Virus genome (UHGV): UHGV-0128598
Reading direction: 5' to 3' (one strand)
Length of the DNA stretch: 11,616 nt
Origin: a virus
Part shown: positions 1 through 11,616 of the stretch, piece after piece
Layout of the letters: each line of letters opens with the position of its first letter
Numbering within the stretch: the stretch's first letter is position 1
The notes under the pieces: generated by a model
Database searches by the model: none
What the model saw: only the letters and a program-made list of their open reading frames with translations
Told to the model about the DNA's origin: nothing
Position numbers and translations under genes: made by a program

Positions 1-182
1 TGCGGGAAAGCAGACGCAAGAAATAGCGGCAATGTCTGTCCGTCCAGTCGAGCATCGGCGCGATGGAAAAACGTGAAGGGCTGTATCCCGGCGTTTTTCC
101 TCTGTTAACGCTGTTCTGGTGTGGGTTGTGCGATTCTTTATTTTCGTGCATTTTTTGTCTTTATGTCGTATTTTTTCTTTAT

Positions 183-220
183 CAGCACCCCCAACAGCAC
201 CCCAGATTCATGGGGTGCTG
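183..220 (+). promoter_or_regulatory. Tandem direct repeat (CAGCACCCC x2) and perfect 9-bp inverted repeat (CAGCACCCC-8 nt-GGGGTGCTG) in the integrase 5' leader
   Basis: Read directly: cagcaccccc at 183-192 and cagcacccc at 195-203; the latter pairs with ggggtgctg at 212-220. It lies about 20 nt upstream of the int ATG (241) and just 5' of an AAGGA ribosome-binding site. A T-rich imperfectly repeated tract lies further upstream (about 130-180). Function (operator, arm-type site, or leader structure) is inferred. Confidence 0.4.
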
Positions 221-240
221 AACGAAGGTAAAGGAAAAGC

Positions 241-1329
241 ATGGCCTACTATAGCATAGAAAAACGTCAACGCGCCGATGGGACTTTACGCTACCGCTGC
301 ACCGTGGGCGTAAAAGAAGGTGGGAAATATATCTACCGGGAAAACCGAACATTCAGCAAACAGGCCCATGCCAAAACGTGGGGTGCTGGTAGGGTTGCTG
401 AACTGGAAACAAATGGGGTGCCGACCACCAACGACTTAAACAAAATGGTTGTTGGCGATCTGCTCAAACGCTATATCAACGATCCCAACCTCGGCGGCAA
501 AGCCGGGCGCACAAAACGTTATGTACTGGATATGTTGCTGGACTGCAACATCGCCGAAACCCCTCTGACAGACCTTTCAACCAGCCACGTTATCGAGCAT
601 TGCCGCCACAGAAACGGCGCTGGTGCCGGTCCTTCTACTATTAACCACGATGTAAGTTACCTTTCTTCCGTTCTGGCATCCGCCAAACCCGTCTACGGTA
701 TCGACTACACGACCAATCCCGCAACAGATGCAAGACCTCTACTGCTCCAGATGGGGCTGATTGGCAAATCCAAACGCCGCAGCCGCCGCCCTGTGAGCGA
801 CGAACTGGATAGACTGCTCGCAGGGCTTGAGGCCAGAAGCGATCACGTCGCAGCAAAAATCCCCTTCGTTGATATTCTTAACTTCTCAATCCTCAGTTGT
901 ATGCGAGTTGGCGAAGTGTGCAAAATCCGCTGGGAAGATGTAGACGAAAAACAAAAGGCCGTGCTGGTCAGAGACAGAAAAGACCCGCGCAAAAAATCCG
1001 GTAACCATATGCTGGTACCACTTCTCGGCGATGCCTGGAACATAGTGCAACGTCAGCCCAAAATCAGCGAGTTAATTTTCCCTTATAACTCTCGTTCTGT
1101 AACTGCGGGTTTTCAACGTGTCAGGAACGCCCTGGGCATTGAAGACTTGCGCTACCACGATATGCGCCGGGAGGGGGCCAGCAGGCTTTTTGAGGCGGGT
1201 TTTAGTATAGAAGAAGTGGCCCAGGTTACAGGCCATCGGTCTCTTAATGTACTCTGGCAGGTTTATACTGAACTGTTTCCGAAATCCCTGCATGAAAAGT
1301 ACGACGCGCTGCACGCTAAAAAGAAGTAG
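241..1329 (+). CDS. int: Phage tyrosine integrase (site-specific recombinase)
   Basis: 362-aa ORF with ATG start and AAGGA ribosome-binding site 6 nt upstream. C-terminal catalytic region shows the tyrosine-recombinase pattern: R in CMRVGEVCKIRWEDV, H-x-x-R in YHDMRREGASRLF, and H...Y in VTGHRSLNVLWQVYTELF. Sits at the edge of a phage gene block. Confidence 0.85.
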   Translation: MAYYSIEKRQRADGTLRYRCTVGVKEGGKYIYRENRTFSKQAHAKTWGAGRVAELETNGVPTTNDLNKMVVGDLLKRYINDPNLGGKAGRTKRYVLDMLLDCNIAETPLTDLSTSHVIEHCRHRNGAGAGPSTINHDVSYLSSVLASAKPVYGIDYTTNPATDARPLLLQMGLIGKSKRRSRRPVSDELDRLLAGLEARSDHVAAKIPFVDILNFSILSCMRVGEVCKIRWEDVDEKQKAVLVRDRKDPRKKSGNHMLVPLLGDAWNIVQRQPKISELIFPYNSRSVTAGFQRVRNALGIEDLRYHDMRREGASRLFEAGFSIEEVAQVTGHRSLNVLWQVYTELFPKSLHEKYDALHAKKK

Positions 1330-1561
1330 CTTTATACCACGCCTGCCAGCGATACTTATCCTGCCGCAGCTGGCGCAGACATTCAGCAGTTTCTATATCA
1401 GCCTGCAGATCTTCATCGCTGTCTGTTCCAGCTTTGCTCGCTCCCTTGCACGGCTCCTGCATCAAATCCGCTGATGGAGTTGGCCGCATCGAGGGCGCGC
1501 TGACGCAACTGCACAGCGTGATCGTCAAAATCGCACTTAGTATGATTCGGGTCGTTAACAT
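1316..1561 (-). CDS. Rz1-like outer-membrane spanin (o-spanin), overlapped with Rz
   Basis: 81-aa ORF in a different frame from Rz, starting inside Rz (ATG at 1561, GGTGA 5 nt upstream) and running past the Rz stop. N-terminus MLTTRIILSAILTITLCSCVSAPS looks like a lipoprotein signal with Cys at 17 and 19, though the lipobox is not canonical. Position directly after the endolysin and Rz. Its last 14 nt overlap the 3' end of int. Confidence 0.5.
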   Translation of the reverse strand: MLTTRIILSAILTITLCSCVSAPSMRPTPSADLMQEPCKGASKAGTDSDEDLQADIETAECLRQLRQDKYRWQAWYKATSF

Positions 1562-1796
1562 ATTTCACCACATCGCGATAAATGGTCCGGTAAATCACTT
1601 TGCCTTCTGCGCTGGACGCTGCCGCTTTCTGTTCGCCGGTTGCTACAGCCTTCTCAGCCTTTTTACTCTTCTCCTGATATTCGCTGTTTATCTTGTCACT
1701 GTGCGCGTACCAGCCTTTCAAGTAACCCGCGTAATACGCACCGACGAGCAACGCCAGCAGAACGGCCAGCGCTAACAATTTTGTTTTAAGGGTCAC
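1413..1796 (-). CDS. Rz-like inner-membrane spanin (i-spanin)
   Basis: The ORF track gives 1413-1814 (GTG start). A GTG at 1796 overlaps the endolysin stop as GTGA with GGGGGA 7 nt upstream, giving [25 protein letters not shown]..., a basic N-terminus followed by one transmembrane segment and a charged, helix-like periplasmic region. This is the typical Rz layout and position. Start codon is uncertain between 1796 and 1814. Confidence 0.65.
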   Translation of the reverse strand: MTLKTKLLALAVLLALLVGAYYAGYLKGWYAHSDKINSEYQEKSKKAEKAVATGEQKAAASSAEGKVIYRTIYRDVVKYVNDPNHTKCDFDDHAVQLRQRALDAANSISGFDAGAVQGSEQSWNRQR

Positions 1797-2323
1797 TGGT
1801 CTATCCCCCAGCACGTCAGCGCGCTTTCCTGGTCACGACGGGATACCTGCCCGTAGCAGTTATTGGAACGGATCCGGCAATCGCGTCCACCGTCTTTTAT
1901 CCACCACCTGATTGCTTCACATGCCCCCTTCCGATCGCCGGCATTGATTCGCTTATAGAACGTGGATGGGAAACACTTGCCGGGGCCGATATTGTACGGG
2001 CAGAACGACGCAATACCTGCTTTCTGCGGTTCAGTCAGCGGCACTTTGATATTGTGCTCTACCCAGGCTAGCGCTTTATCGCGTTCGATAGCGTTTACCT
2101 GGTCACATTTTGCCTGCGTCAGCTTCATACCCTTCACTACAGGCTTACCATCAACCATCGTGGCACCACGGCAAATCGTCCAAATTCCTCCAGCGTCACG
2201 GTATGCGGAGAGACTGTTGCCCTCTTTCTCATTCAGGAACTGATCGAGAATAACCGATGCTGGCGCACCGGCGAGTACCAGTCCCAGAACAGCAGCGCTA
2301 AGCTTAGTCCTGTTGCTGGTCAT
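1793..2323 (-). CDS. SAR endolysin (T4-type lysozyme fold, phage 21 R-like)
   Basis: 176 aa with ATG start and AGAGG ribosome-binding site. N-terminal Gly/Ala-rich weakly hydrophobic segment [19 protein letters not shown] (signal-anchor-release type) followed by the catalytic triad spacing E-x8-D-x5-T in [16 protein letters not shown]. Start overlaps the holin 3' end by 20 nt; stop overlaps the Rz start. Confidence 0.85.
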
Positions 2324-2540
2324 AGAGTTGAGCCTCTTTGCGACGGTCTTCTTTGATTTTGAAATAGAGATTGGTCAGGTAGGTAACCAGCCCCAGAAAT
2401 ATACTCGCCAGCACACCGATAGCAGCCCACTGGCTTGGGCTGACTTTATCGAGTAATTGCAGTAACCAGAAGACGCCACTGCCCCCGGACGTAATATAGG
2501 AAGCACCTGCCGCCAGACCTGAATGGTTGTTCATCCTCAT
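2304..2540 (-). CDS. Pinholin, phage 21 S-like class II holin with dual-start motif
   Basis: 78 aa with two predicted transmembrane segments and a charged C-terminus ([11 protein letters not shown]). Strong resemblance, from memory, to phage 21 S pinholin ([12 protein letters not shown]...[16 protein letters not shown]). Starts M-R-M (ATG AGG ATG), the Met-basic-Met arrangement used for holin/antiholin dual starts. Directly upstream of a SAR endolysin. Confidence 0.8.
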
Positions 2541-2587
2541 ACCTTACCCCCCGTAGGGAACACTATTAAGTGCTCCGAGGGTAAGGT
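2541..2587 (-). promoter_or_regulatory. Hairpin enclosing the holin ribosome-binding site (perfect 9-bp inverted repeat, 29-nt loop)
   Basis: Plus-strand ACCTTACCC at 2541-2549 is the exact reverse complement of GGGTAAGGT at 2579-2587. On the sense (minus) strand the 3' arm GGGUAAGGU sits immediately 5' of the holin AUG and contains the Shine-Dalgarno-like G-rich element. Confidence 0.4.
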
Positions 2588-2595
2588 GGTGATGT

Positions 2596-2610
2596 GGTCG
2601 GAATCCTGAC
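2596..2610. repeat. Copy A (degenerate) of the 16-bp inverted-repeat motif GGTCGGAATCCCGACC
   Basis: GGTCGGAATCCTGAC read directly; differs from copies B and C by one substitution, with the final base absent (next base is T). Lies in the acyltransferase-holin intergenic region, 55 nt upstream of the holin ATG. Confidence 0.6.
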
Positions 2611-2651
2611 TATTGGAGGTATTGACCCGAGAGCCAACATAATGAATTCAT

Positions 2652-3755
2652 TTAGGGTGTATTTAACCCTTTAATTTTTTTATGGCTTAGCAAGCCGAAC
2701 AGGCCCCATATTTTATTAAAGGCGCGTGTTACTTTTTTATCCAGAAGCTTTATGTACAGCGCTGCAATAGTAAACGATATTAACATCGAAATAACTATCG
2801 TCACCTCATAGTTAACAAAAGTCTTCGTAACCGGATATTCAACCCACCACTTCCTTTCAAACATAGCGTGAGACCAAAATCCGATATCGGCATGTATTAA
2901 ATACAGTGGGTATGTCATCGCCCCAAGAAACTTAACAACATTATAAAACTTACCGACTTCAGATACGTTAGATGCACACCAGGTTAACGTAACAAGAGAG
3001 ATACATGCGAGCAGAAGAGATGCATCAGAAACTGAATACCCAAAACTTCCATTTACATATGAATTAAAACCCAACATTCTATTATATATGAGGATCACAC
3101 TAAGAACCATCAAGACGAAATCAAAAGGAGATGGCTTATTTTTCATTATGTCATATATTACTATCCCTGCAATGAAATGACCGGCATGTTCAGTTATAAA
3201 TAGCGCATCAACAAAGCTAGAATGGATTAAAAATTGATTGCTGTATGAAATCACCAACCATGCAAAGCAAATCTCCCTTCTGTAACCACTCCAAATGTTA
3301 AATAACATCATAATGAAAACCAATATATAAAATGTCACCTCTTTCTGAATTGTCCAATAGATATCGCTAAAAAAATGATATCCGAACACTTGGGGGAAAA
3401 ACGTAAAGCTATAGAATAAAGAAACAATCCTTTCCTTAAAATCAACCATTGGTATAAAGCACTGAAACACTAAAACTATAAATCCAAATATTATAAAGGT
3501 GGGTACTATCCTATTAATCCTTGACTTAATAAATTCAACAGGTGTTCTTCCAACTGATGAAAGTGATATTACAAATCCACTTATAATGAAAAATAAATCA
3601 ACACCAAAGTCCCCAAAATAGAAGGCATTAACTGTTAACTCTTTCGGTAGGAAGCCTGAGATAGGCCCAGCGAACAAGTAGTGGTACAACATCACCATCA
3701 TAAATGCCATAAAGCGAAGACCGTCGAGCGCTTCAATCCTTACTGTGGTTTTCAT
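2652..3755 (-). CDS. Integral-membrane acyltransferase, Acyl_transf_3 (OafA/Oac) family; probable O-antigen O-acetyltransferase
   Basis: The track starts at TTG 3758; ATG at 3755 is the likely start (AGAGGA upstream), about 367 aa. Highly hydrophobic with many predicted transmembrane segments and the family motifs: R-x10-H (LDGLRFMAFMMVMLYH), FFxISG (VDLFFIISGFVIS) and RI.P (RINRIVPTF). Markedly AT-rich compared with its neighbours. Confidence 0.85.
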   Translation of the reverse strand: MKTTVRIEALDGLRFMAFMMVMLYHYLFAGPISGFLPKELTVNAFYFGDFGVDLFFIISGFVISLSSVGRTPVEFIKSRINRIVPTFIIFGFIVLVFQCFIPMVDFKERIVSLFYSFTFFPQVFGYHFFSDIYWTIQKEVTFYILVFIMMLFNIWSGYRREICFAWLVISYSNQFLIHSSFVDALFITEHAGHFIAGIVIYDIMKNKPSPFDFVLMVLSVILIYNRMLGFNSYVNGSFGYSVSDASLLLACISLVTLTWCASNVSEVGKFYNVVKFLGAMTYPLYLIHADIGFWSHAMFERKWWVEYPVTKTFVNYEVTIVISMLISFTIAALYIKLLDKKVTRAFNKIWGLFGLLSHKKIKGLNTP

Positions 3756-3760
3756 CAAAT

Positions 3761-3803
3761 CCTCTGGAGTATGCTTTTTACTAAGGAAATCATACCCCAG
3801 AGG
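3761..3803 (-). promoter_or_regulatory. 13-bp inverted repeat (17-nt loop) between tailspike and acyltransferase, enclosing the acyltransferase ribosome-binding site
   Basis: Plus-strand cctctggagtatg (3761-3773) and cataccccagagg (3791-3803) are reverse complements with one mismatch. On the minus-strand RNA that mismatch is a G-U wobble, so all 13 bp pair; on the plus-strand RNA it would be a C-A mismatch. The 3' arm contains the AGAGG element 5 nt before the start. Confidence 0.4.
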
Positions 3804-3819
3804 CTTTACTAATCAAAGT

Positions 3820-6321
3820 TTATCTTGTCAATCGCGCGACGATACCCGCCATGACAAAAACGATTATCTGGTCGTAGTTTAATCCGTATGTGTCGGCCTC
3901 TACATCATGCTCAATCATTTTATACTTTCTGTAATCAAGCCCGTGTCTAGCCATTACCTTCATGACATGCTGTACGGTATACCCAATGTTAACCCCCGCC
4001 TGCTCGCCAAAGTCTCGGCAATCCTTGAGCCACCGGAAAGTACCTGCGCCTAATGCAAGCTCCTGGGATGCTGCAATCTCGGCATCAGTAAATGGTTCAA
4101 TCTCAGTTTTCTGGCGTGCATCAGAGGTAGTAACCACGCCACCTGCTGAATATACACTAGCCCATCTCCTTGAAGAGTTTCCAAGTGTGTAAGTATTGTC
4201 AATATGGGGACCACATGCCCCATTAACATCAAGAGGAAATATTGGATTATCAGTGTTAACCCCAACATTACCACCGCGTGGGTTAATAACTACCTGGTAG
4301 TTATTACCTGATGAATCACTACCCTGAATAAAACCGCCATTAGAACCAGAGTTGCTTAAACATCCAAACTGTAACTCTCTACCACCATCATTATATGAAG
4401 ATCTAAATATTGCTGATGTTTTCAACGTTGAATCTGACAGCGGAATATTTGTTTTATTATCTACAGAAAATAATGCCCTTGGTGTTCCTCCCGTATTCAT
4501 TACCCCAACAAGCCCGCCTGGTGTTATCTCCATAACTTTATGTGGCTTATAGGCCCCATCATCACCATTGTAGAACCGTATGGGGTAATAGTATCCGTTG
4601 CCAGCTATACCGGCTCTAATCTCGTATTCACCAGTCGCTTTTGCAGATATACTGAGATTTTCTTCATCAGCCCCCGTAGTCTTCTGCACGCGGATCGTAC
4701 TTATCTGCGCCCCAATATCGTCACGAATTTTATATGTTGCGCCTGTAGCATTTATAGACGTGTCCTGTAAATTACAGGTGTTGCCGTTATTTGAAATACT
4801 GACAACAGTGCGTAGCGTACCGTTCAGCCAGAATTTATAGGCTCCACTACCGTAACCGAAGAAAAAAAACGGGTCCCCTGACGTTCTGGTGCAAACACCG
4901 TTAATCACGTCACAAATGCCACCACCAGTGGTGTACACATAATGGAATTTTGAGTGCGTACCCACTGCCGCAGTAAGATCCCCGCCGCCTATTTCTGTTA
5001 CGGAAATCTGCCCTGTTGAGGTTAATGCAGTAATTACCAGCGCCCGTTCAAATGCGTATATAGCATCGCCTACTGACCACTTATCTAAGTCGAATAAAGA
5101 GCCACCCTCTCTGACCAGAATATTTTGTGATTGGTGGACTAGTTGACCTTGTGCAGCAGAGCCGTATACAACCACTTCTGAAGGATTGTAATTTTTACTA
5201 GTCTGAATACGCATCCAATTTGCATGACCATCAGATGATAAAAACATACCGTCACCTGAATCCATTAAAGCCCCACCACCGACCTTGAATCCCCCTGAGT
5301 TAGTAGTGGTACCTGCCGAAACAACGCCAGCCCCAAATTTGGTCTCATCTCGTTTACGATACTGGACATTAAGGAATGCCGAGAACGATACTGCTGGTGA
5401 TAAGATTGCCTCGGAGTCCACAACCAGTGTTGGGAGTTTCGCCCACACTAAAGCTATTGGTGTATTGCAAACATAATTCCCCTGCGGAACGTGCAAAGTG
5501 GTACACCCGGAAGGTAGGTTGGATATCATAGAAGCCCAAGCCGCGCTCTCGTCCGAACCATCCCCCCTGACCCCGAAATCTTTTACGCTCAGTGTGTCGG
5601 CGTTTTTATCATGCTGTGTACGCCCCACAGATCCAGAATATGGCTGTTTTACCCCGATAAGAGCATCGCCCTTGCCGCTATCGGTGCTCGCGAGATCTAC
5701 CAAAACATCAGCAGCGCTACCACTCTCTGGACGAACAAATATCGGAGCACCCTCAGCATTGTAAGCCTGTAATCTGTTTGCACGCTGCTCAGCTGGTGCA
5801 AGCGGTGCCACGTAGTTTTCAGGCACGCGCAATGCCCTGTTAAGATTGGTCTGCCCGACCTCCTGCACGTATTTTTTGGTTGCTGCGTCCTGGTCATTAA
5901 CCGGATCCGCAAGGCCGGATATGCGATACCCTTCTGCGTTAAACGGTCCTCCAAGCAACGGGCGACGTAACGCCAGTCCGAGATAAATAAAAGAACGCTG
6001 GATAGCCATCCAGAGGCGGTCAAAATCTTTATTGACGGTATCTGCCAGCAGATCGCCATTGTCCTGGTAATCAGTCAGGCGATAGGTAGGAACAACACGT
6101 TCCAGCATAACAACCGTGCCGTTAGCAGGTGGGGTTAAAAACGTAAGATCACCACCGCTAACGTTACCCACTCCCGACACAGTAAATCCAGTAGTAACAG
6201 GCGTACCATTAAGACTCACCTGAATATCGCTGGCGCTGATGATGTAGAACTCAAAGGGAAAAACGGTCGTCAGACCGTTGGCGTTATAAATAATATAGGG
6301 GGTCTGATTCGGTACCGACAT
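3820..6321 (-). CDS. Tailspike/tail fibre: T7 gp17-like N-terminal anchor, pectate-lyase-like beta-helix depolymerase, C-terminal peptidase S74 intramolecular chaperone
   Basis: 833 aa, ATG start. The N-terminal 150 aa or so resemble, as recalled, the T7 tail-fibre N-terminal domain (VFPFEFY, ERVVPTYRLTDY, ISGLADPVNDQDAATKKYV). The mid region carries the pectate-lyase-3 start signature SVKDFGVRGDGSDESAAWASMISNL. The C-terminus has the autoproteolytic chaperone motif ...SSRRWASVYSAGGVVTTSDARQKTEIEPF. Confidence 0.9.
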   Translation of the reverse strand: MSVPNQTPYIIYNANGLTTVFPFEFYIISASDIQVSLNGTPVTTGFTVSGVGNVSGGDLTFLTPPANGTVVMLERVVPTYRLTDYQDNGDLLADTVNKDFDRLWMAIQRSFIYLGLALRRPLLGGPFNAEGYRISGLADPVNDQDAATKKYVQEVGQTNLNRALRVPENYVAPLAPAEQRANRLQAYNAEGAPIFVRPESGSAADVLVDLASTDSGKGDALIGVKQPYSGSVGRTQHDKNADTLSVKDFGVRGDGSDESAAWASMISNLPSGCTTLHVPQGNYVCNTPIALVWAKLPTLVVDSEAILSPAVSFSAFLNVQYRKRDETKFGAGVVSAGTTTNSGGFKVGGGALMDSGDGMFLSSDGHANWMRIQTSKNYNPSEVVVYGSAAQGQLVHQSQNILVREGGSLFDLDKWSVGDAIYAFERALVITALTSTGQISVTEIGGGDLTAAVGTHSKFHYVYTTGGGICDVINGVCTRTSGDPFFFFGYGSGAYKFWLNGTLRTVVSISNNGNTCNLQDTSINATGATYKIRDDIGAQISTIRVQKTTGADEENLSISAKATGEYEIRAGIAGNGYYYPIRFYNGDDGAYKPHKVMEITPGGLVGVMNTGGTPRALFSVDNKTNIPLSDSTLKTSAIFRSSYNDGGRELQFGCLSNSGSNGGFIQGSDSSGNNYQVVINPRGGNVGVNTDNPIFPLDVNGACGPHIDNTYTLGNSSRRWASVYSAGGVVTTSDARQKTEIEPFTDAEIAASQELALGAGTFRWLKDCRDFGEQAGVNIGYTVQHVMKVMARHGLDYRKYKMIEHDVEADTYGLNYDQIIVFVMAGIVARLTR

Positions 6322-6342
6322 GGCGTGTAACCTCTGGCAGGG

Positions 6343-7953
6343 TTAATAATCGACTTCGACCTCATGGTCTCCGTCACTTAACTGCCAATGTTCCCGCGAT
6401 TGTCCGGTCGGAATCCCGACCACTTTGCCGATACGAACCGGCGTTGCACTAATAGCACCCGCACCAGAATCAATGAAATCGTCCGGCTGGTTGGTCAGTG
6501 CCGGGTTAAAGTCCCGCATCTGGTCGTACATCGGGCCATCAAGCACGTCAGTGTGCGCCCACAGGAAACGGGAAGACAAAGGAGCTTCGAACGCATCAAG
6601 GATACGCTTCTGCTTGTTTGTCACGCTGAATTCTTCCCGCACGCCGCACCCGGTACCTTTTAACGCCTGCCGCAGCAGTTTTCCCGCAAAGCCGCCGGGG
6701 CCGTTTACCTCGACACAAACAACGGGGATCTGGTATCGGATAACCAGCTCTTTAATCTGGGCGACCTGCCCGCCAGTAATCTTGTCGTTATCGTCAAACT
6801 CTGCCAGTTCACCAGTCAGCTCCTTGCAAACATGCCAGTACAGATGTCCGCGCGCGTCAGTCAGTATCAGGGATAACGCTGAGGCGTCCGCTTTCACTTT
6901 ACCGGTTGCCACGTCCCACCACGCCACAGCACCAACAATTTGCGTGCTGCCGAGCCACATCGAGGCGGTACGGTTGGCGTAGCGAATTTCAGGATGGATG
7001 TTGTACTCACGGATGCGATCAGGATCGAGACGAACGTCGCCAACGGGTTTACTGTGCAGCTGGTACTGGCTGTCCCACTCGTTAACGGTGCGACATTCTT
7101 TACGGCGCAACTCCAGCTCGTCATGATCGAATCGCTCAGGCCAGGCACATCCGGCGTAGAAATCAATAACCGTCTCTGGCGCCGCAGCAAACTCCACGCC
7201 GTCGGCGGTCAGCTTGTAGTCAACATCCTCGACCAGCAGTCGCGCCGCTTTATGGATGCCCGCGAAAACGTACTCCGGCCGGAACGGAATAACGTAGCGC
7301 AGCTGCGTGGCATCCTTCGCCTCGATGCGCTTTTCTTTCTCAAACAGTTTAATGGTCAGACAGTCAGCACCTGCCGATTCCATTTCATCGTAGAGGCTGT
7401 CATGTGTGTGCGGTGTACCGATAAAGAGCTTTCGCCCGCCGGGGATCAGGATGTGAGTTTGCTCGCTCAGGCGGTATCGCAGTTTCTCACGCGCTTCCGG
7501 CGTCTGGATGTTGCCGGGGACTTCCACGTCGTCGTTCTGGCACTCATTTGCACGCGCGCCGGTAACGTTCGACAGGATACCTTTTGCGAACATGCTCGCG
7601 TTACGCATATCCAGCGAACCGTTAACCCACCACTGCTCGACTGTGCCGAGTCCATCCGGCAACATGCCTTTTGTCAGGGGGTGATTGCGTAAAACGTTCT
7701 GCGTATCGCGGCTGGTTTTGCGCGCTGTGGAATCTGATTCAGACTGGTGCAGGACCCGGTACTGGCGGTCGCAGTAATATCGCCATGCGTTATAAACGCC
7801 CAGTATGGTAGATTTACCGAAACCACGAAAACAGCGAAGCACCGCAAGATTTCCGCGATGCTCCAGCCAGTGACAGGCACGATAGTGGCAGTCCGGAACG
7901 TCCCAGTTCATCCGCTCCGCCCACATTAAAAAGAAGGCGAGGAACGAAATCAT
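6343..7953 (-). CDS. Terminase large subunit, T7 gp19-like (DNA maturase B)
   Basis: 536 aa, ATG start. Walker A in RGFGKSTILG, plus DDVEVP...AREKL and FIGTPHTHDSLYDE, which resemble T7 gp19 as recalled (AFRGIGKS, ADDVEIP...AREKL, YLGTPQT..LY). Start overlaps the upstream gene stop as ATGA. Confidence 0.85.
   Translation of the reverse strand: MISFLAFFLMWAERMNWDVPDCHYRACHWLEHRGNLAVLRCFRGFGKSTILGVYNAWRYYCDRQYRVLHQSESDSTARKTSRDTQNVLRNHPLTKGMLPDGLGTVEQWWVNGSLDMRNASMFAKGILSNVTGARANECQNDDVEVPGNIQTPEAREKLRYRLSEQTHILIPGGRKLFIGTPHTHDSLYDEMESAGADCLTIKLFEKEKRIEAKDATQLRYVIPFRPEYVFAGIHKAARLLVEDVDYKLTADGVEFAAAPETVIDFYAGCAWPERFDHDELELRRKECRTVNEWDSQYQLHSKPVGDVRLDPDRIREYNIHPEIRYANRTASMWLGSTQIVGAVAWWDVATGKVKADASALSLILTDARGHLYWHVCKELTGELAEFDDNDKITGGQVAQIKELVIRYQIPVVCVEVNGPGGFAGKLLRQALKGTGCGVREEFSVTNKQKRILDAFEAPLSSRFLWAHTDVLDGPMYDQMRDFNPALTNQPDDFIDSGAGAISATPVRIGKVVGIPTGQSREHWQLSDGDHEVEVDY
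6406..6421. repeat. Copy B of the 16-bp inverted-repeat motif GGTCGGAATCCCGACC (6-bp arms, 4-nt spacer)
   Basis: Exact 16-mer shared with copy C. Lies inside the last 26 codons or so of the terminase gene (encoding ...VGIPTG...), 84 nt upstream of the tailspike ATG. Confidence 0.65.
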
Positions 7954-8291
7954 TTTTTGCCTTTCTGCAGGCGCTCGATAATGGCGAGGGCTTCACGCTC
8001 CGCCTTCGATACCTGCTGCCCCAGCGCAAAGGCTTCATCATCCTGCCCGGGGTTATCTGAAGGCGTACCACCGCGCGTTTGCATGCCAATAAGGGAATGC
8101 ACCTTAATCAGCAGCGTCAGCGAAGCCGCCGCGTTCTTCTTGTCCCAGTATCGATCGCCGCGCTCGTCTTTGGTCAGTTCGCTGGGTTTCTTCCCCGCCC
8201 CCGGCCAGTTGTCCGGATCGGCTTCTTCGAGCACCACGTCAGTGAGTTTATCGCTCAGCGCGGTAAGGCGTGTCTTGTAATCCTGATGCAT
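7950..8291 (-). CDS. Putative terminase small subunit (called by position only)
   Basis: The track extends to a TTG at 8375, but that would read through a terminator-like hairpin and the 3' end of the upstream gene. The first ATG is at 8291 (MHQDYKTRLTALSDK..., 113 aa). Acidic/charged small protein whose stop overlaps the large terminase start (ATGA). No sequence motif recognised. Confidence 0.45.
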   Translation of the reverse strand: MHQDYKTRLTALSDKLTDVVLEEADPDNWPGAGKKPSELTKDERGDRYWDKKNAAASLTLLIKVHSLIGMQTRGGTPSDNPGQDDEAFALGQQVSKAEREALAIIERLQKGKK

Positions 8292-8319
8292 AAAAAAGCC
8301 CTGTAGTGAATACAGGGCT
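8292..8319 (-). terminator. Intrinsic-terminator-like hairpin (9-bp stem, 5-nt loop) followed by T6 on the minus strand
   Basis: Minus strand reads AGCCCTGTA-TTCAC-TACAGGGCT-TTTTT and then the ATG at 8291. Lies between the gp16-like gene stop (8356) and the small terminase start. It leaves no room for a Shine-Dalgarno element, so it may instead be a leader or processing structure. Confidence 0.5.
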
Positions 8320-8337
8320 ATGGTGTATGCTTTTTGA

Positions 8338-8353
8338 GGTCGGAATCCCGACC
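8338..8353. repeat. Copy C of the 16-bp inverted-repeat motif GGTCGGAATCCCGACC
   Basis: Exact 16-mer, starting 2 nt after the stop of the gp16-like gene on the minus strand, 46 nt upstream of the small terminase ATG and just upstream of the terminator-like hairpin. Confidence 0.65.
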
Positions 8354-8355
8354 GA

Positions 8356-9870
8356 TTACCGCATGCCGGGGTCAACCTGATTTATCAGCGGCGCTATCCA
8401 GAAAAGATTATTACCCGGCAGCAGCGTACGCACGTTATGCAGTACCCGATCGCCAGCATCACCGTTGAGCACTCCGGCGGTCACATCGGTGACGGTATCC
8501 AGCAAGCCAAACGTCGGGCCGAGAGCGGAGCCAATAAAGCCACGGCTGGCATAGCGAGACTGTGTGCCGGTACCGAGCAGTGCACCCAGCCCCACCATAC
8601 CGCCGGAGGCTTTTTCTGCCATGTTGTTATATTCCATCAGCGGGCCGAGAATACCGGACCGGTCGATACCTTCAATGGCCAGTTTCTGAGGCGACCAGTC
8701 AACCTCTTTACCATTTGCGGATTGTTTAAGTGCGTACGTCAGTGCGCCGAGGCTAATCTGGAAAGCGGTACCGTAATAAAACTGTCCGGTTCCCTCCTGC
8801 AGGCCGCCCAGCGTTGCGCGGTTGTAGGACGCGGTAGCGAACGATTTAAACTGGAAGATAGTTTTACCCAGTGGCGTGCTGGCCCACAATGGCGTATCGC
8901 CGATCCCCGGTGTGATAACTGTATTGTTAACGTCTTTGAGCACGGCCGACTGAAAAACGCCAGCCACATGCTGATCGTCCCATTTTTCAAAATTGCCGAT
9001 ATGCCAGCCATTGATTACCTCACCGTGTTTTTCGAATTCGCTGCGAATACGCGCGGCCATATTGTCGTTAATGCCGAGCTTGGCAAGGCGGCGGCCCGCA
9101 AACGCGCCGGACAGAATGCCGTCGGAGGTGATCATGCCGTTTACCGATTTGTTCATATCGTCGAAGTGGCCCATCAGCGTGAGCTTGCCGAACGCATCGG
9201 TGACGCGCTCCATTCCCGCCTCTACCGCTGTAGTGCGGGAGGAGCTGTCTACCAGGTCACCCATCGTACGCGCACGGGTATGCAGGATGGTTTCCAGCCC
9301 GACGGCCATTTTTAACTGTTCGGCCCGGCTGGCCTTGAATGCCGGCGACCGGGTTATCAGCGCAGAGTAACCGCGCATGGTATTGCCAAACCCGTTAACC
9401 ATCACACCGCGGGCGAGATCAGGAATAGCGGAAACGGTCATACCGCCCAGCTTGGTGACAAAGTTGGCGCTACGCAGAAACGCACCGGCGCGAACGAAAA
9501 ATGATGATGGGTCATCCGGCATACCGTAGGTACCGACGAGGCGATCGCGAAGCGCCAGAATATCGCGCAGATCGGCTTCGCGCGCCTTCGCCAGCTTTTC
9601 CTGCTCTGCCGGGCGTAACCGCATCAGCGCGTCGTATTCGTCCTGGATGGCAGCGAGCTGCGAATCCAGCGACTTGTTGCCAAAGGTACGGGTTAATTCA
9701 ATTTCCGCTGAGGCTTCGCGGATATGACGCTGCAGGACGTAGTTTGCATCGCTCTCCAGATAATCTTTCATCAGGCGATCGGGAACGCTCAACGTACGCG
9801 ATTTGGTGCTGCCCGGCGATTTCAGCATCTTCGCGGGACATGGTTTTCTCACCGCGTGACCACCAGTCAA
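8356..9870 (-). CDS. Internal virion (ejection) protein, T7 gp16-like, C-terminal portion; apparently separated from the N-terminal portion by a frameshift
   Basis: 504-aa ORF. Gly/Ala-rich hydrophobic stretches and a FQFKSF motif resembling the C-terminal part of T7 gp16 as recalled. The first 30 codons or so look non-protein-like and overlap the upstream ORF, so the true N-terminal boundary is probably the frame junction near 9795-9802. Confidence 0.6.
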   Translation of the reverse strand: MTGGHAVRKPCPAKMLKSPGSTKSRTLSVPDRLMKDYLESDANYVLQRHIREASAEIELTRTFGNKSLDSQLAAIQDEYDALMRLRPAEQEKLAKAREADLRDILALRDRLVGTYGMPDDPSSFFVRAGAFLRSANFVTKLGGMTVSAIPDLARGVMVNGFGNTMRGYSALITRSPAFKASRAEQLKMAVGLETILHTRARTMGDLVDSSSRTTAVEAGMERVTDAFGKLTLMGHFDDMNKSVNGMITSDGILSGAFAGRRLAKLGINDNMAARIRSEFEKHGEVINGWHIGNFEKWDDQHVAGVFQSAVLKDVNNTVITPGIGDTPLWASTPLGKTIFQFKSFATASYNRATLGGLQEGTGQFYYGTAFQISLGALTYALKQSANGKEVDWSPQKLAIEGIDRSGILGPLMEYNNMAEKASGGMVGLGALLGTGTQSRYASRGFIGSALGPTFGLLDTVTDVTAGVLNGDAGDRVLHNVRTLLPGNNLFWIAPLINQVDPGMR

Positions 9871-11182
9871 CCAGCATATTGCGGAATTTATCTCGCTCGC
9901 TAACGATTTTACCCACCTTGTACACGCGCGGAAAATAGCTGGTCTGTCCCATCGCTTTCAGTTCGGCATCCGGCGGGAGTAAGCCCAGTTCCTGCTGGGC
10001 TGTCTTCACGCGGTTAATGACCGTACGCATTGCCTGCGCAGCTTCCTGCACTTTTGCATTAACGTGCACGTCGCCGTTACGCAGCGCCTCGCCAACCTGT
10101 TCACGGAAGGCCGTATAACCCAGATCGCCGCCTTCGGCTTTATACTGGGTGTATGCCTGCTTATTCGCAGTAACGACGGCCGCCTCTTCGCGGTGCCAGC
10201 CACGTACGCGCGTCTCGGCTGCTACCGGTGTTTCGATACCGCGCAGGTTGCCTTCCAGCGTGAAGTTATTCTCCGCCAACTCCAGCGCTGTCCGGCGCGC
10301 TTCTTTTGATGGGGATTCCATCAGGCGGGTGATCGGCGTCAGATAGCTACCGGCCTTTTTAGCCAGCTTGCCGAGCGGGCCGCCAGACACCGGTGTGAGG
10401 TCTTCCAGCGTTGCTTCGCGAATACGCATGGCGCCGACGCTGCCACCGTTCGGTAAAGTATCCGCCAGGGCGTCAGCTGCGTTGTTAATCGTTGGCGCGG
10501 CATTCATGTTATCGAGCGCCTCCGCCACTTCCCGTGTAGCCGCGTTTCTTACCGATGGGGTGATCATCGCGCCAGCAGTAGCAAATACACCGCTGAGAAG
10601 CGCGCCGGCTGTAATGTGCGCGGCGCTCTCCCTTGCTGTTCTGGTGTACTGCTCGTTATTGAGCGCAACCTCGCTAAGTGCGGTACCGGCGGCGCCAATA
10701 GCAATCTGAGAACCAATACGAGCAGCCAGGCTTCCCTGCGCACCGGGAATAAACATCGATGCGACCGTGACAGGGTCGATAACCCCGGCGGCGATACTGG
10801 CCAGAGTTCCTTCAGCGCCTGCCTCAGACAAAACCCGACGGTCTTCATTTTCATCGTCTATCTGGTTTTTTATCCAGGCGGTTTCCTCTGGCGATCGAGA
10901 ATCCGCAAAGGCGGATCCCCATTGTTCGTACCCCTTTAGTTCGTTTTTATCAGAATAAGGGTTATACCCGTCCGCCGGTTCGAATTGTTTGGCCGAGCGG
11001 AACATTCCAGCCAGCAGGTTATTCTGACGAAATGCAGCGCCCCACACAGACGGCTCATCCTGCTGAGGTGCTGGGTTAGTACCTTCAGGCAAAGGCACAT
11101 CAAATCCGGTAGGTGCAGCCAGGACATTACCCGCCGGAGTGAATCCGTTATTGAGTTCTTCAGGGGTGGCGTATACCGGCAT
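9698..11182 (-). CDS. Internal virion (ejection) protein, T7 gp16-like, N-terminal/central portion
   Basis: 494-aa ORF, ATG start overlapping the upstream stop (TAATG). Motifs resemble T7 gp16 as recalled: TPEEL, SEAGAEGTLASIAAGVIDPVTVASMFIPG (compare AGIIGAGVDPLSYVPMVG) and EKTMSREDAEI (compare AKMSREETRY). The last 30 codons or so are low-complexity and overlap the next ORF in another frame. No N-terminal transglycosylase-like region is evident. Confidence 0.6.
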   Translation of the reverse strand: MPVYATPEELNNGFTPAGNVLAAPTGFDVPLPEGTNPAPQQDEPSVWGAAFRQNNLLAGMFRSAKQFEPADGYNPYSDKNELKGYEQWGSAFADSRSPEETAWIKNQIDDENEDRRVLSEAGAEGTLASIAAGVIDPVTVASMFIPGAQGSLAARIGSQIAIGAAGTALSEVALNNEQYTRTARESAAHITAGALLSGVFATAGAMITPSVRNAATREVAEALDNMNAAPTINNAADALADTLPNGGSVGAMRIREATLEDLTPVSGGPLGKLAKKAGSYLTPITRLMESPSKEARRTALELAENNFTLEGNLRGIETPVAAETRVRGWHREEAAVVTANKQAYTQYKAEGGDLGYTAFREQVGEALRNGDVHVNAKVQEAAQAMRTVINRVKTAQQELGLLPPDAELKAMGQTSYFPRVYKVGKIVSERDKFRNMLVDWWSRGEKTMSREDAEIAGQHQIAYVERSRSPDERLSGERCKLRPAASYPRSLSGN

Positions 11183-11577
11183 TATTCAGTGCTCCACGAA
11201 AAGTAATTTTTAACCCTGTCCATGCGCTCGTTATGCAGGCGCTTGTACTGCTCATCGAGCGCACGGTGCTTATCTTTGAACCCACGAATATCCTGCCCGC
11301 GTTGCAGCTCATTGCGATCATGTTCTTCGCGCTCTTCCTGCATTTTTTTGTATGGCGCCCACTCTTCCAGTGACGGTTTCCAGCGCATCGGCCTGCCGTA
11401 CGAATCGTAGAACGGTTGTACCGCCTCGATACCATCCTTATCTTTTGTTCGCACCATGATGGCGTAATCGCCATTGCGGGCCGTCAGTACATCAGGGGTA
11501 ATTTCCAGATCGCCGCCAATACGCGACTCCGGCGTTTTGCTGGTGACAGGCGCTGCGTTACCGGGTGATGCTGCCAA
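11182..11577 (-). CDS. Hypothetical protein, translationally coupled to the gp16-like gene
   Basis: The track ORF starts at a TTG (11577) with no ribosome-binding site. The first ATG is at 11457 (MVRTKDKDG..., about 91 aa). Charged, helix-like C-terminus. Stop overlaps the next start (TAATG). A different frame is open from the window edge to a stop at 11484-11486, so an upstream gene may be cut by the window. Start and reality of this ORF are uncertain. Confidence 0.35.
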   Translation of the reverse strand: MAASPGNAAPVTSKTPESRIGGDLEITPDVLTARNGDYAIMVRTKDKDGIEAVQPFYDSYGRPMRWKPSLEEWAPYKKMQEEREEHDRNELQRGQDIRGFKDKHRALDEQYKRLHNERMDRVKNYFSWSTE

Positions 11578-11616
11578 CTTACTGATTTAGTGTATGATGG
11601 TGTTTTTGAGGTGCTC

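Follow-up and report, generated by a model that had tools for sequence, protein, structure and literature searches.

The stretch of DNA analyzed here (hereafter the window) comprises 11,616 nucleotides of the virus genome UHGV-0128598 and carries virion, packaging, lysis and acyltransferase genes, all on the minus strand, which converge on a tyrosine integrase gene on the plus strand. A gene map built from an open reading frame (ORF) listing and from searches against the Pfam, PHROG and NCBIfam families recovered the genes at the coordinates given below, with family statistics far above chance. The window is very probably the att/integrase-proximal arm of a temperate podovirus prophage of ~34 kb, inserted in the 5' end of the Escherichia coli dusA gene and represented here by a defective copy. 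A first-pass annotation of the same DNA, which drew attention to the T7-like character of several genes, missed both the dusA site (1-151) and the two lesions of this copy.

At its left end the window holds the 5' end of the host dusA gene (1-151, minus strand), as judged from how RefSeq annotates the identical stretch of E. coli STEC383, and within it the attachment site attL (43-63, without strand), a 21-bp imperfect repeat, TCCAGTCGAGCATCGGCGCGA, recognized by its match to attR. The integrase gene follows (241-1329, plus strand); its product is of the dusA-associated type, matches Pfam Phage_integrase (PF00589, 2.6e-19) and PHROGs 1, 25190 and 22184, and contains the R-H-R-H-Y set of catalytic residues (R222, H306, R309, H332 and Y342). 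A tRNA scan and an Rfam scan of the window returned no match, and therefore the integration target is not a tRNA. In a megablast comparison of the whole window with phage genomes, coverage exceeded 10% for none of the phages, and protein-level searches were needed. When 5426 complete E. coli genomes were searched by megablast, positions 1-11564 were found in two of them, STEC383 and B379, with an identity above 99.9% besides a 77-bp indel. In both of these full-length genomes the integrase adjoins dusA, and the element spans ~34 kb and ends at a PrtN-family gene, behind which 105 bp of the original dusA 5' end remain. The prophage provides the first ~33 codons of dusA: the phage-supplied DusA N-terminus starts MHENKES and differs from the displaced original, MHGNSEMQKINQTSAMPEKTDVHWSGRFSVAPMLDG (MHGNSEMQK...RFSVAPMLDG), which lies at the far prophage end, and the phage-supplied and original ends meet at the APMLDW codons. 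The site attR is TCCCATCGAGCATTGGTGCAA (L002 8845-8865 in STEC383); it is identical to attL in 16 of 21 bases, and the att core is an exact 8-bp match, TCGAGCAT, at window positions 48-55.

This arrangement closely resembles that of the islands bearing a dusA-associated integrase, which, in the portions of the work of Farrugia et al. (2015, PMC4482086) drawn on here, are described as replacing dusA's 5' end, as bounded by semi-conserved imperfect repeats of 21 bp, as containing PrtN in 64% of cases and as consisting of prophages in about half. The element shares with them the tyrosine integrase at dusA, the exchanged dusA 5' end, the 21-bp imperfect repeats and the PrtN homologue at the far end, and these insertion features carry the signature of the dusA-associated integrase family. 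The difference lies in the cargo, since that work defines an integration module with highly diverse passengers and, in the same portions, does not name podovirus cargo of this kind.

Two lesions set the window's copy apart from the intact arrangement. Three ORFs are listed at its right end, namely those of 504 aa (8356-9870), 494 aa (9698-11182) and 131 aa (11182-11577). The first two do belong to a gp16-like family (see below), but they are halves of one gene, for the same region is a single coding sequence (CDS) of 967 aa in STEC383 and B379, and in the window it forms a pseudogene of internal virion protein D (8356-11182, minus strand). By BLAST against STEC383, 77 bp of intact sequence are missing from the window at ~9814-9828, near codon ~452 (compare L001 28814-28905), and the resulting frameshift splits the gene. 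The deletion is flanked by imperfect 15-bp direct repeats, CGGCGCTTTCACCAT and CGGCGATTTCAGCAT, identical at 13 of 15 positions, and a deletion between such repeats looks typical of replication slippage. Besides this deletion, one single-nucleotide polymorphism (SNP), at window position 11350, separates the window from STEC383 over 11.5 kb. The 131-aa ORF, in turn, corresponds to the last ~127 codons of the gene for a 902-aa internal virion protein with a transglycosylase (SLT) domain, cut at 11564 by IS1. Alignment to the end of the SLT CDS of STEC383 and B379, and to the unbroken 902-aa ORF of contig L007, places this 3' remnant at 11182-11563 (minus strand), and the bases that follow (11564-11616, without strand) are the IS1 terminal inverted repeat and the first bases of the insertion element, with a 100% match to IS1-annotated records; the TTG start of the 131-aa ORF falls within this terminal repeat. 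Intact alleles exist, as B379 and the metagenome contig L007 both have the SLT gene in its full 902-aa form. In STEC383 it is annotated as frameshifted (L001 30259-32966), which is either a second independent lesion or a sequencing error.

It might be supposed that assembly errors created the 77-bp deletion and the IS1 junction and that the real prophage is intact, since the metagenome contigs to which the window is identical terminate in a repeat, IS1, and short-read assemblies break at such elements. This is very improbable. The exact 494-aa frameshift product is encoded on five contigs from public assemblies, and the two of them that were retrieved, from separate sources (ENA human gut and JGI), both contain 100% of the window and stop in the same IS1; because of this recurrence both lesions look real. 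In addition, the 13-of-15-bp direct repeats are typical of slippage and too short to collapse an assembly made at k=127, and the IS1 junction falls precisely at the IS1 terminal repeat within coding sequence, as predicted for a real insertion. Metagenome contigs were also searched for sequence past the IS1 insertion, and just two IS1-free relatives, L007 and L008, came up.

The homologues of both disrupted genes in T7, gp15 and gp16, are essential ejection proteins, and consequently the window's copy should be unable to yield infectious particles, except by complementation or reversion. Whether the element is complete, which the first-pass annotation had held to be beyond judgment, can be answered for this copy by its two inactivating lesions. 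A domesticated tailocin or a remnant resembling a gene-transfer agent was considered and ruled out by the existence of intact 34-kb copies with a full phage gene set and by the recent date of the lesions, the latter following from the single SNP in 11.5 kb relative to STEC383. The damaged copy is a fairly ordinary decaying prophage, and offers a snapshot of prophage decay through a slippage deletion and an IS1 insertion.

The STEC383 and B379 copies also show what lies outside the window, where the first-pass annotation had expected to find a single-subunit RNA polymerase. Extension into these copies did bring to light the portal, the genes of the capsid arm, a DNA polymerase and attR, but with every CDS of the ~34 kb accounted for in STEC383 and B379, there is no single-subunit RNA polymerase gene. 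The copies encode a CI-like repressor with HTH_3 and Peptidase_S24 domains, divergent from a small helix-turn-helix (HTH) gene and a VapE primase-helicase gene, and further DUF2800, DUF2815, DNA polymerase (PolA), VRR-NUC, SNF2 and PrtN proteins. These data bear directly on the view that the window belongs to a true integrated and potentially inducible T7-like phage of the Autographiviridae type, whose RNA polymerase, replication and capsid genes would lie just beyond its end. Such a phage would account for the T7-type large terminase, the internal virion protein of the gp16 family and the T7-type N-terminal domain of the fiber, and there are known cases of temperate T7-like phages with an RNA polymerase (PMC10134795). 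Nevertheless, no RNA polymerase gene exists in the complete 34-kb prophage into which the genomes matching 1-11564 at more than 99.9% (the 77-bp indel apart) run; this prophage has an early region that is divergent, a CI-like repressor, and portal, tail and small internal virion proteins of epsilon15 type. Two essential genes are, in addition, disrupted in the window's copy, all of which leaves this explanation with next to no probability. The one-strand gene order that had been likened to that of autographiviruses holds, but the affinity drawn from it does not, given the missing polymerase and the divergent lysogeny/replication region. The prophage is a mosaic temperate podovirus within the broad 'T7 supergroup', and not an integrated autographivirus.

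The T7-type portion of this mosaic includes the large terminase and internal virion protein D. The large terminase (TerL; 6343-7953, minus strand) scores 293.7 bits against the NCBIfam model NF033889, termin_lrg_T7 (cut-off 150; E 2.7e-87), falls in PHROG 38 in common with T7 gp19, aligns to gp19 by BLASTP with 31% identity over 195 aa of the ATPase domain (E 2e-21), and matches the T7 terminase entries 4bij and 8dgc of the PDB with E ~1e-17. By BLASTP no match was obtained to epsilon15 gp2, the Sf6-type terminase of that phage. The terL gene is placed between the internal virion genes and the fiber gene, and its start is overlapped by 4 nt by the preceding gene (7950-8291, minus strand), which encodes a 113-aa protein of PHROG 9277, a family of unknown function. 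This gene lies directly upstream of terL in 44 of the 75 related loci described below. No Pfam, NCBIfam or PDB sequence match was found for its product, and a single-sequence AlphaFold2 model (pLDDT 77) is a three-helix bundle for which Foldseek returned generic helical bundles alone (best E 0.12); by its position it is a putative small terminase subunit. In the 64-bp gap that separates the stop of internal virion protein D from the start of the 113-aa gene, a terminator-like hairpin was noted as a consensus match (8297-8319, minus strand), with a 9-bp stem containing 5 GC pairs and followed by TTTTTT, which may serve as an internal terminator, an attenuator or a processing site ahead of the terminase genes. 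The scan that detected it was not clearly above chance, with 18 terminator-like sites in the window against 12.6 ± 4.3 expected.

Internal virion protein D falls in PHROG 342, to which T7 gp16 also belongs, the 494-aa ORF matching with 8.8e-79 and the 504-aa ORF with 1.5e-111. The protein lacks the N-terminal transglycosylase domain of gp16, which is found on the preceding 902-aa protein. Accordingly, the T7 motifs that had been recognized in the large terminase and in the gp16-like protein do reflect membership of the same families as gp19 and gp16 (NF033889, PHROG 38 and PHROG 342), and the BLASTP comparison proposed with them gave a clear match for gp19 and weaker ones for gp16 and for gp17 (E 8e-4). 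A T7-type terminase and a gp16-like gene do not, however, mark an autographivirus; here they occur in an ordinary temperate phage that would use host transcription, and this has a bearing on prophage annotation and on the screening of therapeutic phages.

When each virion and packaging protein was compared with coliphage T7 and with Salmonella phage epsilon15, by PHROG and by BLASTP, most of the virion fell on the epsilon15 side. The prophage and epsilon15 share PHROG 332 for the portal (449 in T7), 394 for tubular tail protein A (446 in T7), 376 for tubular tail protein B (457 in T7) and 418 for the 155-aa internal virion protein (805 in T7), and the SLT protein belongs to PHROG 1044, which is the second-best for epsilon15 gp15 (best 992), against 1339 and 342 in T7. 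Likewise, the portal, the tubular tails and the small and SLT internal virion proteins gave BLASTP matches in epsilon15 alone and not in T7, with E values of 1e-5 to 1e-47. The tubular tail homologues of the full-length copies include a match to Pfam Phage_nozzle (5e-8). A further gene of this region encodes a GNAT-family acetyltransferase (L001 33439-33888); it stands between the genes for tail tube B and for the internal virion proteins and is kept in 52 of the 75 related loci. Its positional counterpart in epsilon15, gp13, bears an annotation as internal virion protein and shows a GNAT-like match by HHpred.

Based on these affinities, the element could be regarded as a plain epsilon15-like prophage of the Uetakevirus type, in which any resemblance to T7 is a deep homology common to most podoviruses. 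Most virion proteins do share epsilon15 PHROGs and BLASTP matches, the gene order from the fiber to att/int is alike, the N-terminus of the fiber is nearest to epsilon15-type tailspikes, and internal virion protein D shows 73.5% identity to gp38 of TL-2011b, a podovirus with lambdoid regulation. We consider this unlikely, however, as the terminase is of T7 type by a curated equivalog model, is sited between the internal virion and fiber genes and shows no match to an Sf6-type terminase. Protein D reaches 1e-111 in the PHROG of T7 gp16 versus 3e-15 in PHROG 684, that of epsilon15 gp17. The full-length copy showed no detected homologue of either epsilon15 gp16 or gp8-10, and its replication module is entirely different. 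Of the features that define the groups, those of the T7 supergroup (Hardies et al. 2016, PMC4819975) are present, namely protein D, tubular tails A and B, small internal virion proteins and a T7-type docking domain in the fiber. The strict features of the Autographiviridae are found for the T7-type TerL and are absent for the RNA polymerase and for the one-strand, lytic layout without a lysogeny module, and from the Uetakevirus set the epsilon15-type portal, tail tube and small internal virion proteins occur, with BLASTP E values of 1e-9 to 1e-47, and the Sf6/P22-type terminase and the PHROG 684 protein do not. In the terms of Hardies et al. (PMC4819975), the mosaic podovirus joins an epsilon15-subgroup tail ensemble to a T7-type terminase and internal virion protein D.

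The prophage resembles T7 in the PHROG and equivalog of its TerL, the gp16 family, the PF03906 fiber domain and the PF12236 portal family, and in the succession of portal, scaffold, capsid, tail tube and internal virion proteins. It differs from T7 in having neither an RNA polymerase nor T7-like replication genes, in being temperate, with an integrase and a CI-like repressor, in carrying the transglycosylase domain not on the gp16 homologue but on the internal virion protein that precedes it, in the position of its terminase genes ahead of the fiber gene, and in the assignment of most virion proteins to other PHROGs. With epsilon15, also temperate, it shares the PHROGs of the portal, tubular tails A and B, GNAT-like protein and small and SLT internal virion proteins, and the order of fiber, conversion gene or genes, holin, endolysin, Rz/Rz1 and att/int. 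In contrast, epsilon15 has an Sf6-type terminase at the other genome end, a gp17 of PHROG 684 and not 342, the additional gp16 and decoration proteins, lambdoid recombination and replication genes, and another integrase and att site, and its conversion genes are an O-antigen polymerase and inhibitors, whereas the prophage has an acyltransferase.

The tail fiber or tailspike comprises 833 aa (3820-6321, minus strand). Its N-terminus matches Pfam Phage_T7_tail (PF03906) at aa 8-153 (E 3.4e-11, 43.5 bits, cut-off 25.2), and the T7-type domain noted in the first-pass annotation is therefore present; yet the better match of this N-terminus is epsilon15 gp20 (35% over 241 aa, E 1e-35), with T7 gp17 more distant (32% over 97 aa, E 8e-4), and it is 53% identical to that of the phage YeP4. 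Residues 212-284 resemble the Sf6 tailspike, and the C-terminus contains a Peptidase_S74 chaperone (aa 733-795, 6.2e-7). As predicted from these matches, the layout is that of an N-terminal particle-docking domain, a variable receptor-binding middle and a self-cleaving C-terminal chaperone.

Ranking of the TerL relatives by tblastn placed the Yersinia phages YeP4-6 nearest among phages (77%), followed by Alcaligenes phage Piluca (47%), Acinetobacter phage TPWB-05 and Escherichia phage vB_EcoM_APEC (43.5%), while true autographiviruses align to part of the protein alone, with 21-33% identity. YeP4, YeP5 and YeP6 (MK733262-4, unclassified Caudoviricetes) share a layout of ~35 kb in which integrase, SNF2 helicase, PolA, DUF2815/DUF2800-like genes, repressor, primase, portal, scaffold, capsid, tail tube, internal virion proteins, a small protein, TerL, fiber and lysis genes follow one another in an order that matches the prophage. 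They were induced with mitomycin C and have podovirus morphology, and YeP4 forms turbid plaques (PMC6548840). They differ in their host, in their integrase, the window integrase having no near megablast match in them, in the lack of an AT3 acyltransferase, in another partition of the internal virion proteins and in another receptor-binding part of the fiber. Piluca has been described as a temperate podophage that encodes CI, Cro and integrase proteins, has T7/epsilon15-like tail proteins and packages by a headful mechanism (PMC9022569). Both Piluca and vB_EcoM_APEC resemble the prophage in their ~35-kb genomes, T7/epsilon15-like tail, internal virion protein genes and temperate markers, and differ from it in early regions, hosts and lysis genes, vB_EcoM_APEC having lambdoid O/DnaB-type replication genes.

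The terminase lineage was found at no fewer than 75 loci (at least 75) in species-representative proteobacterial genomes, many of them on long chromosomal contigs, with hosts that include Enterobacterales, Pseudomonas, Acinetobacter and Burkholderiales. Together with the published temperate relatives YeP4-6 and Piluca (PMC6548840, PMC9022569), these loci contradict the earlier statement that integrated relatives are uncommon. Within E. coli, terL is rare (4 of the 5426 complete genomes). The block kept across the 75 loci consists of tubular tail protein B, the GNAT protein, the small internal virion protein, a variable C/D portion, the 113-aa protein, TerL and the fiber N-terminus. The large internal virion proteins, encoded in the region bounded by the gene for the small internal virion protein and by the 113-aa gene, were observed to form the variable part of this otherwise conserved block; only 17 of the 75 loci gave a detected homologue of the 967-aa protein, and only 7 one of the 902-aa SLT protein, which suggests that ejection protein genes are exchanged in a cassette-like manner. 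With regard to the integration module, only one of the 75 other related loci, L016 from a Pluralibacter metagenome-assembled genome, has both dusA and a homologue of the window integrase within 10 kb of the terminase gene. Positions 138-1298 of the window, comprising the integrase and its upstream region, were also seen to be 74% identical in nucleotide sequence to the integrase of the long-tailed Yersinia phages YeP1-3 (MK733259-61), and since these phages are otherwise unrelated to the prophage, the integration module travels separately from the virion module.

The element, whose att sites are precisely defined, brings an E. coli member to an already known, though unclassified, kind of temperate podovirus that is widespread and mosaic between the epsilon15 and T7 structural subgroups. 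Tentatively, and with less than even confidence, we suggest that prophages of the YeP4/STEC383 type might constitute an unclassified temperate podovirus lineage of genus to family level, widespread in Gamma- and Betaproteobacteria, whose members would unite a portal and tail of epsilon15 type with a terminase of T7 type, some of them also having an ejection protein of the T7 gp16 type, and would depend on the host RNA polymerase. Such a lineage could exemplify the sort of temperate stock, lacking a polymerase, that gave rise to T7-like phages; just as well, it could be a bridge formed by recombination between the two podovirus subgroups, in which internal virion proteins C and D are encoded by an exchangeable cassette. 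The part-epsilon15, part-T7 mosaic is the one aspect that might repay phylogenomic study.

The genes between the fiber and the integrase belong to lysis and to a putative conversion function, and here the first-pass annotation was borne out, in that it had described a phage-21-type lysis cassette beside a convergent tyrosine integrase (PF04971 holin, Phage_lysozyme, PHROG 2536 and Phage_integrase) and an accompanying acyltransferase. The holin, a phage-21-type class II protein of the pinholin type (2304-2540, minus strand), matches PF04971, 'Bacteriophage P21 holin S', with E 1.4e-30 and 105.5 bits (cut-off 26). Its ORF was seen to open with M-R-M, giving possible dual starts at M1 and M3 (78 and 76 aa), which would be reminiscent of the holin/antiholin dual-start motif in gene S of phage 21. 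The endolysin (1793-2323, minus strand; Pfam Phage_lysozyme, PF00959, 1.2e-25), of the T4-lysozyme fold family, has the catalytic motif E34-x8-D43-x5-T49 and, by inspection and hydropathy, a hydrophobic Gly/Ala-rich N-terminal segment at aa ~8-27, and by this segment and motif it is predicted to be of the signal-arrest-release (SAR) type. The Rz i-spanin (1413-1814, minus strand; PHROG 2536, 1.1e-46), for which RefSeq sets the start at 1796, has an N-terminal transmembrane segment. In a different frame, an unannotated 81-aa ORF (1316-1561, minus strand) overlaps the 3' part of Rz and, by 14 nt, the stop of the convergent integrase. Inspection revealed a signal-like N-terminus, a lipobox-like LCSC and a proline-rich mature end, and although no family match was found for it, this ORF is likely to be the Rz1 o-spanin, for which it is the candidate.

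The acyltransferase gene (2652-3758, minus strand) encodes an AT3-family membrane protein with multiple hydrophobic segments, which matches Acyl_transf_3 (PF01757, 1.2e-23) over aa 9-332 and the O-acetyltransferase family PHROG 3333 (2.4e-35). The gene is a moron in a low-GC stretch, with a GC content of 32-42% against 50-60% in the flanks. Its best phage matches are to Salmonella phage g341c and to BTP1 GtrC (26% identity, E 2e-6), and the gene occurs in 2 of the 5426 E. coli genomes and in 0 of the 75 related loci. From its family matches the product is probably an O-antigen O-acetyltransferase, and this gene, private to few lineages, may alter the O-antigen there. A sigma-70-like TTGATT-16-TATGAT was noted at 3816-3789 (minus strand), in the short gap between the fiber stop and the acyltransferase start, and may be a moron promoter.

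Taken with the gene set of the full-length copies, these features lead us to hypothesize the following life cycle for the mosaic podovirus. The dusA-associated integrase would recombine the 21-bp attP with the APMLDW codons of dusA, and the phage-supplied 5' end would keep dusA intact. Lysogeny would be held by the CI-like HTH-S24 repressor, with a response to SOS expected as in YeP4, and after induction the genome would be replicated by its own PolA/VapE/DUF2800/DUF2815 module. Because the phage has no polymerase of its own, the late genes would be transcribed by the host RNA polymerase. The portal, scaffold, tubular tails A and B, GNAT-like protein and small and transglycosylase internal virion proteins would be contributed by epsilon15-type genes, and internal virion protein D and the large terminase with its presumed 113-aa small subunit by T7-type genes, so that a T7/epsilon15-type procapsid might be filled by a T7-type terminase in which the 113-aa protein is likely the small subunit. 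The fiber would dock through its T7/epsilon15-type N-terminal domain and mature by self-cleavage of the S74 chaperone, and adsorption would proceed through its variable central and C-terminal region once the chaperone is removed. Upon infection, the ejected internal virion proteins would bridge the envelope, with the SLT domain cutting the peptidoglycan, and the cycle would end with lysis by a phage-21-type pinholin, a SAR endolysin and Rz/Rz1 spanins. In the lysogen, the low-GC AT3 acyltransferase would probably be expressed as a lysogenic-conversion gene acetylating a surface polysaccharide.

Several observations weigh against parts of this reading. The relation of the 967-aa protein to gp16 is one of PHROG profile matches, since direct BLASTP alignments to T7 gp16 are collinear though weak (E 0.019 and 0.041) and a PDB sequence search with the intact 967-aa protein returned no match. 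The small-terminase role of the 113-aa protein is a putative one drawn from its position. The acyltransferase is only ~26% identical to proven O-antigen acetylases, and a promoter scan was not above chance, with 11 promoter-like sites against 12.1 expected, and gave no usable evidence for a promoter of its own. Finally, the window and its source contigs end at IS1.

Two further observations concern relatives of the prophage. The publication on phage vB_EcoM_APEC (L010, MT664721) describes a myovirus induced from Chitinimonas. The genome nevertheless codes for both tail tubular proteins (A and B), for a head-to-tail connector of T7 type and for a terminase of the same lineage, and no contractile-tail genes are annotated in it; the published morphology may belong to a different particle in the lysate. 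In E. coli EC2 (L013, NZ_CP058571.1, 18109-27378), a related prophage with ~80% identity is found at tRNA-Thr. This remnant contains the lysis genes, an acyltransferase on the opposite strand, the fiber, terL and the 113-aa gene, and IS1 directly abuts it beside the genes next to terL, with an integrase after IS1, which suggests a recurrent IS1-mediated erosion of this prophage type, as likewise seen in the window's copy.

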